A stretch of DNA of 64,000 nt from an uncultured Bacteroidales bacterium (GCA_903945175.1 CAJAUM010000115.1:975-64974), one strand, 5' to 3'; positions 13,235 to 55,488 are shown, numbered from the stretch's first letter. Made by a program: numbers and translations. Notes: a model not told the origin generated them from the sequence alone.

Positions 13235-14482
13235 TCAGGGAGTCGGATTGACCCAGTCCCCATTTTCCTTGATGAGATTGATCAGCGCCTCCACCGCCAG
13301 GGATTCGTCAAGATTCTTTTCTACCAGTTGCTGTTTTTTGTACAAATTGATTTTGCCTTTGCCTGCGCCCACGTAACCATAGTGTGCGTCGGCCATTTCG
13401 CCTGGTCCGTTGACAACACAGCCCATCACGGCAATTTTCAGTCCGGACAGGTGCGATGTTTTAGCCTGAATATTTTCCAGCGCCGACTGGATATTAAATT
13501 GGGTCCGGCCGCATGAGGGGCAGGCAATAAACTCTGTTTTGGTAATCCGGGCCCCTGCTGCCTGGAGGATATTGTAAGCCACCGGAATTTCAAATTCAGG
13601 ATCTTCGGTGAGGGAAACCCTGATGGTATCGCCGATGCCATCGGCCAGCAAACTGCCGATCCCGATGGCTGACTTAATCCGTCCATCTTCTCCGGCGCCA
13701 GCTTCTGTGACCCCGAGGTGGAGCGGGTAATTCATACCAGCCTCCCTCATCTTCTCAACCAGCAAACGGTTAGCGGCGATCATCACCTTGGTGCTGCTGG
13801 CTTTCATAGATAAGACCAGATTTTGAAACGAGAGACTTTCGCAGACCAGTGCAAACTCCAGGGCTGACTGAACCATGCCCAACGGGGTGTCTCCATATTC
13901 GTTCATGATGCGATCGGAGAGCGACCCATGATTCACACCGATCCGGATGGCCGTGCCGTGATCTTTACAGATTTTTAAAAGCGGGGAGAGGCGCGTGGAA
14001 ATCAGTTCCAGCACATCACCCTCCGTGACGCGTGATGGATCAATCGTGACGCGTGATGGATCAATCGTGACGCGTGACGCATCAATCGTGACGCGTGACG
14101 CGTGACGCGTGACATTGCTTTTTTGACCTGGCATGTAATTCCCAGGATTAATCCTGATTTTTTCGACAATTCCTGCGGCGATTTCAGCGATTTTAGGATT
14201 AAAATGGACATCCGCGATCAGGGGGGTATTGTATCCGCGGAGGTGTAGTGCTTTTTTAATTTCCCGCAGATTTTCAGCCTCTTTAATTCCCGGAGTGGCA
14301 ATGCGGACATATTCACAGCCGGCTTCGATCATCCGGATGGCCTGTTCAACCGTCGCTTTGGTGTCGAGGCTGTTCGTGCTTGTCATCGACTGAACACGCA
14401 CGGGATTGTCCCCTCCCATGGGCAGATGGCCCACTTCAACAACCCGGGTTGCAAACCGCTGATATAATTGCTTGCCTTTCAT
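13235..14482 (-). CDS. ispG: 4-hydroxy-3-methylbut-2-en-1-yl diphosphate synthase, carrying an in-frame repeat insertion
   Basis: RINPGN, CPSCGRT and GCVVNGPGE motifs. 415 aa. Confidence 0.9.
   Translation of the reverse strand: MKGKQLYQRFATRVVEVGHLPMGGDNPVRVQSMTSTNSLDTKATVEQAIRMIEAGCEYVRIATPGIKEAENLREIKKALHLRGYNTPLIADVHFNPKIAEIAAGIVEKIRINPGNYMPGQKSNVTRHASRVTIDASRVTIDPSRVTIDPSRVTEGDVLELISTRLSPLLKICKDHGTAIRIGVNHGSLSDRIMNEYGDTPLGMVQSALEFALVCESLSFQNLVLSMKASSTKVMIAANRLLVEKMREAGMNYPLHLGVTEAGAGEDGRIKSAIGIGSLLADGIGDTIRVSLTEDPEFEIPVAYNILQAAGARITKTEFIACPSCGRTQFNIQSALENIQAKTSHLSGLKIAVMGCVVNGPGEMADAHYGYVGAGKGKINLYKKQQLVEKNLDESLAVEALINLIKENGDWVNPTP
14025..14113 (-). repeat. Heptamer-derived array inside ispG (three 21-nt super-units plus GTGACGC x ~3.7 on the plus strand)
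   Basis: Read directly: 14025-45, 14046-66 and 14067-87 are 21-mers gtgacgcgtga(t/c)g(g/c)atcaatc; 14088-14113 is gtgacgc repeated. Translates in frame as [30 protein letters not shown]. Confidence 0.95.
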
Positions 14483-14501
14483 AATTTCGCTATTTCGCTA
14501 T

Positions 14502-15251
14502 CTAAATCAGCCCCTTCACCCTTGGCTTTCCTGCCACAAAATCTTTCAGGTAGAAGGGCTCAAAATAGGCCAGGCTTTCAAATTTTTTTTCTCTGAACTT
14601 CTCTTCTGCCAGCCTTGTGATGAATCTGGCTGATGCCTGGAATCCATCCATAAACAAAGCATTGGGATGATCGCCCAAGACAGGCTTGCATTTTTCAGCA
14701 CCTTCACCCCCGAAAGCAATCCTATGGTCAGTCAGGAGCTCCTGAAATGAAAAATCATCGATGATTTCAGCGCAAACCTCCCGAATCTCCCTGTTTTGCT
14801 GATCAAATACCGCACTGTAAACCTCCATTCTCCGCGCATCGATCATGGGACATAAAAAAATCCCGGATTGACCATTGGTCATTGGTAATTGGTCATTGGT
14901 CATTGGTAATTGGTCATCGGTCATTTGTAATTGGTCATTCATCCCCACGGCCATGGCCTGGAGTGTGTGAACGGCAATCAGGGGTTTATCGATGGCATAA
15001 CAAAGACCTTTTGCTGCAGCCACCCCAATGCGCAGACCGGTATATGAGCCGGGGCCCATGCTCACAGCAATGGCATCAAGATCAGTGATCTGAAATCCGG
15101 AAGATTTTATTAGGTCGTCGATAAACAGGGTGAGCATGGCAGAATGAACATTCCGTGCTGAAGATTCCTTTATTCCCAGGATCTTTTCATCGCGCGCCAA
15201 TGCCACGGAACAGACCTCAGTGGCCGTTTCAATGCAAAGGATCAGTGCCAT
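14502..15251 (-). CDS. tsaB: tRNA threonylcarbamoyladenosine biosynthesis protein TsaB, carrying an in-frame repeat insertion
   Basis: ILCIETATEVCSVAL N-terminus and GPGSYTGLRIGVAAAKG motif. 249 aa. Confidence 0.85.
   Translation of the reverse strand: MALILCIETATEVCSVALARDEKILGIKESSARNVHSAMLTLFIDDLIKSSGFQITDLDAIAVSMGPGSYTGLRIGVAAAKGLCYAIDKPLIAVHTLQAMAVGMNDQLQMTDDQLPMTNDQLPMTNGQSGIFLCPMIDARRMEVYSAVFDQQNREIREVCAEIIDDFSFQELLTDHRIAFGGEGAEKCKPVLGDHPNALFMDGFQASARFITRLAEEKFREKKFESLAYFEPFYLKDFVAGKPRVKGLI
14873..14942 (-). repeat. Heptamer tandem array inside tsaB (CATTGGT/AATTGGT x 10 on the plus strand)
   Basis: Ten consecutive 7-mers read directly, with a 21-nt higher-order pattern (cattggt cattggt aattggt). 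Translates in frame as the repeat tract MNDQLQMTDDQLPMTNDQLPMTNGQ within tsaB. Confidence 0.95.
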
Positions 15252-15254
15252 GCA

Positions 15255-53569: not shown

Positions 53570-54417
53570 ACTATACAAAACAGATCCAGGACATCGCGGC
53601 GAAGCTGTTTACTGAAGGAAAGATCGACGTTTTTGTTGGTTATCGCATGAACGGTTTCGACGATAACCAGGTTCCGGTGCTGATTACCGACCCGCAAGAC
53701 GTGTCCAAACTTGTGTTCACCGACAAATCGGTTTTCAACCTTGTGAATTACCTCAAGACTGACCATACACGCAGAAAACGGGTTGGGTTGGTCGTCAAGG
53801 GATGCGACAGCCGATCGCTCAACCTGATGCTGACCGAAAGCCAGGTGAAACGTGAAAATCTATATGTTGTCGGAATTTGCTGCGAAGGAATAGTGGATGA
53901 TTCGGGGCACAAGATGCAGAATTGCGTGGAATGCGTGGTTCCCGATGCAGTGGTGAGTGATGAACTTCTCGGGACTCCTTCGGGACAGAAACCTTATATG
54001 GTAAATGTCGATATTGCCGCGCTTGCTGCAAAGCCACTTACAGAAAGGACGGCCTATTTTGAAGAGGTCTTCGAAAACTGCATCCGCTGCAATGCCTGCC
54101 GCCATTCATGTCCGTTGTGCTATTGTGCCAAATGCTGTATTGACCAGGAGACGGCCACCTTATACAACGGTGCAAATACCACCTCCGCTGCGTTCCATGC
54201 CCTGATGACCTGGTCGCTGCACCTGGCAGGCCGCTGCGTTGATTGCCGAAACTGCGAAAAAGCCTGTCCGAGCCACCTGCCATTGCATTTACTGCACAAA
54301 CAGAATGAAAGTGTGATCTATGAGAACTTCCAGGAGCACCTGGCCGGGGTCATTCCCGAGGATCGCGGCGCATTTTACAAGTACAGTCTGAAAGATCCCG
54401 ATGATTTTATCATGTAA
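53566..54417 (+). CDS. flxC: 4Fe-4S dicluster protein (FlxC-like)
   Basis: CIRCNACRHSCPLCYC and CVDCRNCEKACP motifs. Position between the MvhD-like and AsrA/HydB-like genes. Confidence 0.65.
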   Translation: MNYTKQIQDIAAKLFTEGKIDVFVGYRMNGFDDNQVPVLITDPQDVSKLVFTDKSVFNLVNYLKTDHTRRKRVGLVVKGCDSRSLNLMLTESQVKRENLYVVGICCEGIVDDSGHKMQNCVECVVPDAVVSDELLGTPSGQKPYMVNVDIAALAAKPLTERTAYFEEVFENCIRCNACRHSCPLCYCAKCCIDQETATLYNGANTTSAAFHALMTWSLHLAGRCVDCRNCEKACPSHLPLHLLHKQNESVIYENFQEHLAGVIPEDRGAFYKYSLKDPDDFIM

Positions 54418-54432
54418 TCCGAATCCGAACTT

Positions 54433-55488
54433 ATGAGCGTTGAAACATTTGTTACCGATAAAGCCGGCTTGATCACATTCTATGAAGCCATCATGGCCAG
54501 TCACGAAACCTATGCCCCGGTCGAGAAATTCGGCAAATTTGATTTTAAGCAGGTGAAAAGCCTGGCGGAATGTGACCCAGAATCGCCCATTGCAAAGACC
54601 CAGAGCATCAAGCCCCTTTTCTTCCCCAGGTCGGCCAAGGTGATGAAATATGTTGCCACAAGCACAGGAACGGAAGTTTCGGAGGTTGATGAGGATCCGC
54701 TTGCCGTTAAACGCGTCATCCTGGGCGCAAAACATTGCGATGCCCGTGCATTGCAGGTTCTTGACAAGGTATACAACTGGGATTACATCGATACCGATTA
54801 CCAGAAGCGCCGGGAAAATACTGTGATTATCTCGACCCGTTGCGACAAGGCTGACACCCATTGTTTCTGCACTTCGCTCGATTACGATGTTGAAAATCTC
54901 AATGCCATGGATGTTTTGGTTGTACATGGATCCGATGGAAAGGTTTACATCAAAGCCAGGACAGAGAAAGGTTCTACACTTTTAAATACAGAGGTCACGC
55001 GTCACGCGTCACGTGTCACGGAAGAAGCCGCAGCACCCGACCTGAAAAAGCAATACGAAGCCTTTGCGGGTTCTTTCAGGCTTAAGATGGATTATTCGGA
55101 GGTTAATTCAAAATTGTCGAAGATCTTCGACACCCCGGAATTTGAAAATGTCTCGGGAAATTGTGTGAGCTGCAACACCTGTGCCTTTGTTTGTCCGACC
55201 TGCCATTGCTTCAAAATCTCCGATGAAAAAATCAAAGATACAGGGTTGCGATATAAAAGCTATGACTCCTGTAACAACGGATATTTTACCCTGATGGCGG
55301 GCGGTCACAATCCCCGTCCGGCCAAGTACCGTCGCTGGCGGCAGCGTGCCATGCACAAGTTTGTATACTACAAGGAGCGCTTTGGCGAGAACCTTTGTGT
55401 GGGGTGCGGTAAATGTACCATAGCCTGCCCGGTAAACATCAGTATTTTTGAGGTGGTTAATCAGGTGGCAGTAGGCAGTAGGCAATAG
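54433..55488 (+). CDS. flxB: AsrA / sulfhydrogenase-beta-like 4Fe-4S protein (FlxB-like) with an in-frame heptamer insertion and a repeat-encoded C-terminus
   Basis: [16 protein letters not shown] and [12 protein letters not shown] motifs. The last 7 codons and the TAG stop lie in the GGCAGTA array. Confidence 0.65.
54994..55021 (+). repeat. Heptamer tandem array (GTCACGC x 4, last two degenerate) inside flxB
   Basis: gtcacgc gtcacgc gtcacgt gtcacgg read directly. Translates in frame as VTRHASRVT. Confidence 0.95.

Follow-up and report, generated by a model that had tools for sequence, protein, structure and literature searches.

Repeat arrays and genes in the window

We analysed a 64,000-nt stretch of DNA from an uncultured Bacteroidales bacterium (GCA_903945175.1, CAJAUM010000115.1:975-64974; hereafter the window, with positions counted from its first letter), in which tandem arrays of 7-nt units lie inside and at the ends of protein-coding genes. 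The relation of these arrays to reading frames and stop codons is the subject of the present analysis. The genes and arrays concerned are as follows.

13235-14482, (-) strand: ispG gene (TIGR00612, 450 bits versus a cut-off of 280)
14024-14113, (-) strand: in-frame repeat tract in ispG (Tandem Repeats Finder, TRF; sequence; translation)
14502-15251, (-) strand: tsaB gene (TIGR03725, 154 bits versus a cut-off of 69)
14873-14939, (-) strand: in-frame array in tsaB (TRF, sequence, translation)
18190-19428, (+) strand: atpB gene, F0 subunit a (TIGR01131, 128 bits versus a cut-off of 103)
19426-19470, (+) strand: TGACGAA/TGACGAG, 6.4 copies, with a 14-nt alternation (TRF, sequence)
54433-55488, (+) strand: flxB-like gene, AsrA/HydB-family Fe-S subunit (best NCBIfam matches under cut-offs)
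54994-55020, (+) strand: in-frame GTCACGC, 3.9 copies, 27 nt, peptide VTRHASRVT, in the flxB-like gene (TRF, sequence)
55467-55627, (+) strand: GGCAGTA/GGCAATA, 23 copies (TRF, sequence)

The five arrays lie where a first-pass annotation, made from the sequence alone, had placed them, and TRF period-7 rows and the sequence agree on this. Its gene names ispG, tsaB and atpB are borne out by scores above the NCBIfam cut-offs, but the flxB name is its own, as that gene scores under the cut-offs. In the ispG tract, 3.9 copies of GTCACGC (14087-14113) precede 3.6 copies of a 21-nt unit that reads ATTGATCCATCACGCGTCACG on the sense strand and encodes the peptide SRVTIDP; for this unit the TRF period-21 row gives 3.6 copies at 96%. 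The corresponding row for the tsaB array gives 3.2 copies at 93%, and the tsaB open reading frame (ORF) translates across 14873-14939 as MNDQLQMTDDQLPMTNDQLPMTNGQ. Both long intragenic arrays thus contain the 21-nt higher-order units that had been reported for them.

Heptamer arrays in the genome

We searched the genome to which the window belongs (G000, an assembly of 4.41 Mb in 155 contigs) with our own detector besides TRF, counting heptamer arrays of at least three units. Genes were called as our own hexamer-scored ORFs under a longest-ORF rule (n = 3616, ~93% of the genome in ORFs), and an intragenic array was termed deep when it lay at least 100 nt from the ORF start and at least 30 nt from the ORF end. 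We found 202 heptamer arrays, which together span 9.6 kb, as well as 61 octamer arrays, and few arrays of other periods. Perfect tracts of at least three units number 175 at period 7 and 51 at period 8, versus 0.0 in triplet shuffles, and none occur at periods 9-11. The heptamer arrays fall into 29 unit types, headed by AATGACC (55 arrays), GTCACGC (34), AATGACG (31), AATTACC (13) and GGCAATA (13). Head-to-tail units within the 5-11-nt range, at least three copies, a period-specific excess over chance and a sporadic, lineage-specific distribution of units place them in the class of long simple sequence repeats.

By position, 101 heptamer arrays are intergenic, 40 lie within ORFs, 38 hold a gene stop, 15 a called start and 8 both. 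Only 28 of the 202 are deep in ORFs in a genome that is ~93% ORF, so that the arrays are mostly intergenic and depleted from coding sequence. A stop codon is present on exactly one strand in 186 arrays (92%) and 21 of the 29 unit types, versus 41-45% of random heptamers. Most units share a TGAC/GTCA core (CAATGAC, GAATGAC, GCGTGAC, GAGTGAC, GGATGAC, TGATGAC).

Several long arrays are located at contig ends (C110 1-77, C43 12-122, C73 1-170, C31 1-125, C130 115-191, C51 148250-148293). Since the assembly breaks at long arrays, their true number and length are underestimated. An origin of the arrays as assembly artefacts was rejected, as the same sites bear arrays in independent assemblies of many congeners.

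Orientation and reading frame inside genes

Of the 28 deep intragenic arrays, 20 have no stop in any of the three sense frames, 6 are open only in the frame that is used, and 19 lack an open antisense frame. GTCACGC arrays, which the first-pass annotation had seen in stop-free orientation in ispG and the flxB-like gene, keep to that orientation in every deep case in the genome (12:0), and also at the loci taken from congeners (5:0; comparison set of 40 congeners, one genome per species).

Orientation is not the only way in which a frame is kept open. The repeat ACCAATG had been described as free of stops on the tsaB sense strand, but its cyclic reading ATG ACC AAT GAC CAA TGA holds a TGA. The sense strand of tsaB is in fact built of a 21-nt super-unit, ACCAATG ACCAATG ACCAATT, which encodes (MTNDQLP)n and in which each in-frame TGA is replaced by TTA, the Leu codon of MTNDQLP. 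The tsaB frame is open because the third unit of each triple is ACCAATT. Hence, the 21-nt super-unit of tsaB is the rescue itself and no separate property of the array.

The same solution recurs in the wider AATGAC[CG]/AATTAC[CG] family, of which 6 deep intragenic arrays have the stop-bearing strand as sense and 7 have it as antisense. All sense copies have T at the in-frame units, in the pattern (GGT)x4.3 in a NuoD/HycE-like (hydrogenase-like) gene on contig C105 and TGGTG in tsaB. As the family is tolerated both ways, the rule is the lack of a stop in the used frame, reached either through orientation or through a unit variant. In congener G002, a TGA-bearing variant, TTGACGA, is confined to positions at which the TGA is out of frame. 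The new detail here is that a TGA-to-TTA change in every third unit keeps a gene readable.

Array length and growth in 21-nt steps

A 7-nt unit returns to the same frame after three copies, and the first-pass annotation had proposed checking array length modulo 21 together with orientation across the genome. The orientation rule holds in genes, as described above, but multiples of 21 nt are not in excess there: they account for 2 of 28 deep intragenic versus 11 of 101 intergenic arrays, and multiples of three are likewise not enriched (12 of 28 versus 44 of 101). Array ends are fuzzy by 1-3 nt, which makes the length-modulo test weak, and we therefore relied on super-units and orthologue comparisons instead. 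GTCACGC arrays cluster at 21 and 27 nt (3-4 units) in genes and between them alike. We scored a 21-nt super-unit when, in arrays of at least 42 nt, identity at lag 21 was above that at lags 7 and 14. This held for 2 of 6 deep intragenic and 15 of 66 other arrays, a non-significant difference in a comparison that just six deep arrays leave low in power. These two deep intragenic arrays are precisely the long ones that have the stop unit on the sense strand. Super-units of 14 nt are common between genes, the TGACGAA/TGACGAG array of the window included, and 21-nt ones occur there too, some of them perfect (C92 7171-7233, C51 148250-148293).

Individual genes are more informative. In the C105 gene, the triple AATGACC AATGACC AATTACC (unit ATGACCAATGACCAATTACC) is repeated 4.6 times, lag-21 identity being 100%; in the closest congener, G038 (88% identity at the protein level), the 21-nt triple is present once and other units follow. 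The ispG loop has three extra 21-nt units (SRVTID[AP]) in G000 only and none in congeners. The 21-mer comprises 12 nt of heptamer sequence and 9 nt of unrelated sequence. In the congeners' ispG loop, VTRHASR is intact in G015 (3.5 copies of GTCACGC) and decayed by point mutation in eight others. Other in-gene super-units measure 36 nt (12 residues, in a murF-alr-like gene) and 24 nt (three octamers, encoding HPVTLSPC, in an lnt-like gene). By hand count, blurred by other indels, the tsaB loop differs by 66 nt from that of the array-free G014, and the ispG loop by 69 nt from that of G015. Judged from these comparisons, 21-nt growth inside genes is real where it can be traced individually (C105, ispG) and is not a property of arrays as such. 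The C105 and ispG genes, the 24- and 36-nt super-units and the placement of TTGACGA in G002 together show that the changes persisting in genes are multiples of three bases.

Alternatively, a dedicated mechanism could add arrays in blocks of three units, so that frame preservation would be built in rather than selected. The perfect super-units in C105, tsaB and ispG could be read in this way, as could those of the intergenic C92 and C51 arrays and the number of TRF rows at period 21 (64, versus 32 at period 18 and 42 at period 24). Such a mechanism, however, fits neither the scarcity of lengths divisible by 21 nor the GTCACGC clusters at 21 and 27 nt; nor does it account for 14-nt super-units between genes, 24- and 36-nt ones within them, or an ispG 21-mer that is only partly heptamer. 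We consider it very unlikely.

Arrays at gene ends

The expression "array at a gene end" covers two different cases. The TGACGAA/TGACGAG array begins on the atpB stop codon (19426-19428) and occupies the spacer between atpB and atpE as far as the conserved atpE leader. The C-terminus EPEHH-stop of atpB is conserved in all same-genus relatives examined, array or no array. Directly 3' of their TGA, TAG or TAA, most of them have other, species-specific repeat units, often as inverted pairs, and three genomes have none. The conservation of this end regardless of the array means that the array does not terminate atpB; the claim that TGACGAA sits where atpB ends is correct as to position but overstated, as the stop is native.

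The 3' end of the flxB-like gene, in turn, is array-supplied: its last six codons (AVGSRQ) and the stop TAG (55486-55488) are encoded by the GGCAGTA/GGCAATA array. The first-pass annotation was right that this array ends the gene, but it had counted seven repeat-encoded codons where six precede the TAG. Past ...EVVNQV, the tail of the flxB-like protein measures 4-8 residues and differs between species. Congener G010 has the same arrangement as G000, with an array-encoded tail AVGNRQ* followed by a four-helix-bundle gene.

Genome-wide, 46 stop-bearing arrays overlap a gene 3' end, versus 0 arrays in stop-free orientation among those with a stop on one strand. An array in stop-bearing orientation offers a stop within seven codons and can therefore extend into the 3' end of an ORF, which one in stop-free orientation cannot do. 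ORFs reach 1-23 nt into stop-bearing arrays, a range that fits termination at the array's first in-frame stop.

Tolerant loops and housekeeping genes

Across congeners, invariant flanks enclose array segments that are hypervariable in both length and sequence; this holds for ispG, tsaB, the flxB-like gene and the C105 gene. In the AlphaFold model of TsaB (12 orthologues, mean pLDDT 78.5), residues 113-128 have pLDDT <50 and correspond to the array-encoded segment, predicted as a coil between helix 96-110 and strand 132-140. The tsaB loop holds AATGACC/AATTACC in G000, three copies of AATTACA in G002, four copies of AATTACG plus an inverted arm in G006, a C/G-rich hairpin in G004 and G005, and no repeat in G014. 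At the flxB-like loop, GTCACGC is found intact or decayed in G006, G008, G003, G007 and G011, GAATATC in G002 and a CAGTCGG-type unit in G005.

Heptamer simple sequence repeats drive phase variation in some pathogens, and one could ask whether the intragenic arrays are contingency switches that act through gain and loss of units; arrays open in three frames would not halt translation at once upon a slip. Yet a 7-nt slip would throw all downstream sequence out of frame, and the hosts are single-copy housekeeping genes (ispG and tsaB and, by sequence, purL-, dnaE- and murF-alr-like genes). Instead of a promoter or 5' location in surface or variable-function genes, the arrays occupy mid-protein loops, away from 5' ends, as in ispG, tsaB and the flxB-like gene; others lie in purL-, dnaE-, murF-alr- and lnt-like genes. 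Across species they are kept in frame or decayed by point mutation. A role as switches is therefore scarcely credible.

Probable purifying selection on slippage-prone repeats

We suggest that the frame logic of the arrays is, most probably, what purifying selection leaves on species-specific, proliferating 7-nt tandem repeats prone to slippage. Direct observations comprise the array counts, the rescue by TTA, the 21-nt expansions restricted to particular lineages and the native stop of atpB; what we infer is slippage as the mutational process, and selection rather than a directed mechanism as the filter. The first-pass annotation had offered a selection filter or growth in frame-preserving triplets as two options. 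These are really one thing, of which the selection half is well supported, and the 21-nt growth applies in single genes but not to arrays in general.

Under this reading, arrays would change by slipped-strand mispairing; 8-nt and 9-nt forms exist beside the 7-nt ones. Between genes, any orientation, length or super-unit would survive. Within a gene, survival would require a tolerant surface loop, a used frame free of stops, secured either through the orientation of the array (GTCACGC, GGTCATT) or through a stop-free variant of the unit at each in-frame position (TGA to TTA, AATGACC arrays), and changes in length by multiples of 3 nt, which for a 7-nt unit means three units, or 21 nt. Because frame-preserving change is needed, recent growth would be visible as perfect 21-nt super-units (24 nt for octamers). 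The arrays thus offer a clean worked example of a repeat of "forbidden" period surviving in essential genes, through a stop-free variant at exact third units, growth by 21-nt blocks that comparison with a close relative reveals, and decay by point mutation in other species.

Several points weigh against it. With all classes taken together, 70 arrays between co-oriented genes have their stop-bearing strand as the sense strand, versus 27 that do not. This overall bias arises because classes with a stop or a called start in the array are "same" by construction; once 11 arrays that the longest-ORF rule places just inside 5' ends are reassigned, ~70:38 is left. The residue is only partly tautological, and may reflect a real orientation preference or a function at gene boundaries. 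The excess of units with a stop on one strand is unexplained by tolerance inside genes. In addition, the super-unit comparison is small, the step size of array change derives from comparisons between species, and the gene calls are our own hexamer-scored ORFs rather than curated annotation.

The first two of these points could also mean that stop-bearing arrays at gene ends are functional. A regulator-binding role has been proposed for TAACTGA repeats upstream of starts in the passages cited here of MacGregor 2015 (PMC4679880); AATGAC units bear overlapping ATG and TGA, a stop and the next called start occur together in eight arrays, and 24 of 54 purely intergenic arrays begin within 10 nt of the upstream stop. 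However, arrays between co-oriented genes that touch no ORF lack an orientation bias (29 same versus 25 opposite), and purely intergenic arrays do not hug stop codons (30 nearer the upstream stop, 23 nearer the next start, p = 0.41). Called starts within arrays are a by-product of the longest-ORF rule, and atpB terminates at the same native stop throughout the same-genus relatives examined, three of which lack an array. Moreover, the unit at a given boundary varies by species, and many congeners are entirely without these units. We regard a function at gene ends as unlikely.

Relation to known repeats

Direct repeats of the heptamer TAACTGA occur in marine Beggiatoaceae, Cyanobacteria and some Bacteroidetes (MacGregor 2015, PMC4679880; here and below, as far as the passages cited go). 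Forward TAACTGA repeats hold stops in three frames and are thus confined to ORF ends, and reverse ones could lie anywhere and would be mostly deleterious (PMC4679880). Our arrays resemble these in their tandem 7-nt units, their mostly intergenic position beside start and stop codons, their patchy, strain-specific distribution and the presence of other heptamers in the same spacers. In contrast, the units are AATGACC, GTCACGC, AATGACG, GGCAATA and others; the stop-bearing orientation also occurs deep in genes, where TGA-to-TTA at third units rescues it; and 21-nt super-units, documented here, were not found in the passages of PMC4679880. Those passages favour a regulatory role upstream of starts, whereas pure spacers here show no orientation bias.

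For long simple sequence repeats with 5-11-nt units, heptanucleotides were reported as dominant and slippage was proposed as the origin (Mrazek, Guo and Shah 2007, via passages of PMC4679880 and PMC4692102). In coding regions, units whose length is not divisible by three are seldom found, since their expansion creates stops or a frameshift (same sources). Heptamer predominance, a proposed slippage origin and coding scarcity are shared with our arrays, whereas in-frame arrays in housekeeping genes, super-unit structure and species-specific repertoires at orthologous sites are not part of that census as these passages relay it. G-rich heptameric repeats such as GGGAATC of Xanthomonas and GGGGA(C/T)T of Nostoc (Rehm et al. 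2015, PMC4692102) similarly lie between co-oriented ORFs, <50 bp from stop or start codons, some overlapping the stop, and prefer about four units (PMC4692102), as GTCACGC here has 3-4 units (21-27 nt). The units described here lack G-tracts, so the G-quadruplex explanation of the four-unit preference (PMC4692102) cannot apply to them. The orientation logic and the scarcity in genes of units that are not multiples of three are thus largely anticipated in print.

Rickettsia palindromic elements are palindromic elements of 100-150 bp that form in-frame insertions in conserved genes. As in those elements, repeat DNA here adds translated residues to the surface loops of essential proteins, at tolerant sites that differ between species; the in-frame insertions occupy hypervariable loops of conserved genes, with pLDDT <50 in the TsaB model. 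Unlike them, our arrays are tandem 7-mers. A palindrome or hairpin is absent from the ispG, tsaB and flxB-like arrays of the window, which are single direct arms, and inverted arms occur in the same loops of some congeners only. The STRR heptanucleotide repeats of heterocystous cyanobacteria, as reportedly described by Mazel et al. in 1990, also comprise several units per genome, dispersed and mostly intergenic. The arrays described here share these traits; they belong to another phylum and have other unit sequences. We know of no frame analysis for STRR repeats. Heptanucleotides of this kind from Calothrix are mentioned in the passages cited of PMC4692102.

Species-specific units at orthologous sites

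The more interesting lead is that arrays are kept at orthologous sites with a unit that follows the repertoire of the genome, which is hard to explain by local slippage alone. Orthologous loops and spacers hold an array across the genus; the unit varies by species and matches the dominant repertoire of each genome (window positions 14873-14939, 19426-19470 and 54994-55020; loci L002-L015, L017-L028, L033-L043 and L077-L100). The dominant unit is AATGAC[CG] in G000, ATTTACG in G002, G011 and G012, and GTCACGC in G036. Counts of genome-wide matches, which as overlapping windows measure array length as well as array number, are 192 for three copies of AATGACS, 5 for three copies of WTTTACG and 93 for three copies of GTCACGC in G000; the respective figures are 0, 346 and 29 in G002 and 0, 0 and 255 in G036. 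Three-copy GTCACGC is found in 24 of the 40 congeners (0-255 matches), AATGACS in 18 and WTTTACG in 27, and several congeners have none of these three patterns. Three dispersed sites share the repertoire, namely the tsaB loop, the atpB-atpE spacer and the hydrogenase-like loop, with AATGAC[CG] in G000 and TTTACGA/AATTACA in G002.

Agreement between unit and genome repertoire at dispersed sites argues for spread or homogenisation, through concerted evolution or re-seeding, and not for local slippage alone. Each species of the genus may have a heptamer "dialect" of its own that recurs at the same conserved sites, among them loops in essential proteins, and the arrays would then be more than passive products of slippage; we put this forward tentatively and consider it doubtful. 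Such agreement would require genome-wide homogenising or re-seeding, whether through gene conversion among arrays, insertions drawn repeatedly from a pool or templated "repeat-writing", to which the Avd-like four-helix-bundle cassettes described below might be linked. The (G,G,T)n pattern would then reflect a balance in which homogenisation drives units towards the TGA form and selection favours in-frame TTA.

Arrays of congeners often form inverted pairs (TTTACGA xn ... AAATCGT xn) that would fold as hairpins, for instance in the atpB-atpE spacer (L018, L019, L020, L023). Such pairs are translated in frame in tsaB (L011) and in orthologues of the C105 gene (L079, L080, L082). At all of these sites G000 has single arms.

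The four-helix-bundle cassette

Downstream of the flxB-like gene, the GGCAGTA/GGCAATA array stops 6 nt short of the next ATG and forms the left arm of an inverted pair around a small gene.

55634-56020, (+) strand: four-helix-bundle gene (23S rRNA IVS protein/Avd-like) between two inverted arrays (TIGR02436, PF05635)
56014-56046, (+) strand: TGCCTAT, 4.7 copies, right arm, reverse complement of the GGCAATA units (TRF, sequence)

The gene scores 136 bits with TIGR02436 versus a cut-off of 24 and also matches PF05635; a variant unit of the right arm, TGCCTAA, provides its stop. Positions 55467-56046 alone thus constitute an IVS-type cassette, a PF05635/TIGR02436 gene between inverted arrays. There are seven PF05635 matches in the genome, five of which adjoin 7- or 8-mer arrays; that of the window and that of C15 are bracketed by roughly inverted arrays. 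Those adjoining arrays elsewhere are:

C44:242-559: array-adjoining PF05635 gene
C15:54976-55287: array-adjoining PF05635 gene
C144:6717-6983: array-adjoining PF05635 gene
C110:152934-153233: array-adjoining PF05635 gene

At the corresponding flxB-flxA junction, congener G010 also has the cassette; it is absent from the remaining congeners examined at this site. The cassette explains just a handful of the 263 arrays.

Other arrays in spacers

Three further heptamer arrays of the window lie between genes.

3764-3783, (+) strand: intergenic GTCACGC, 2.9 copies, 60 nt upstream of an ORF (TRF)
37028-37053, (+) strand: intergenic CAATGGC/TAATGGC, 3.7 copies, in the spacer of co-oriented genes (TRF)
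48456-48474, (+) strand: CGTGAAG-type, 2.7 copies, occupying the entire 25-nt spacer of two co-oriented ORFs (TRF)

The 19-nt spacer between ispG and tsaB is occupied by 2.2 copies of ATTTCGCT (14484-14501), and arrays of a related 8-mer, CGCTATTT, lie in the flxB-flxA spacer of several congeners (L034, L035, L038, L041, L042). Intergenic GTCACGC arrays on other contigs (C21 5997, C51 182-235, C114 22023, C141 34998) are bracketed by T-runs and further GTCACG copies, in a composite TTTTT-GTCACGCGTCACGCGTCACG-TTTTT-GTCACG that was not seen in the intragenic copies.

In two regions, C144:2641-7237 and C21:3499-11144, 5-6 consecutive genes are separated by spacers that each hold a different 7- or 8-mer array. 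By translation, the genes of these runs look accessory (RhuM-like, chain-length-determinant-like, four-helix-bundle). We rejected the idea that array-flanked small genes form a special cassette class, as, judged by the appearance of their translations, they include ispF-, nuoC- and nadD-like housekeeping genes beside accessory ones.

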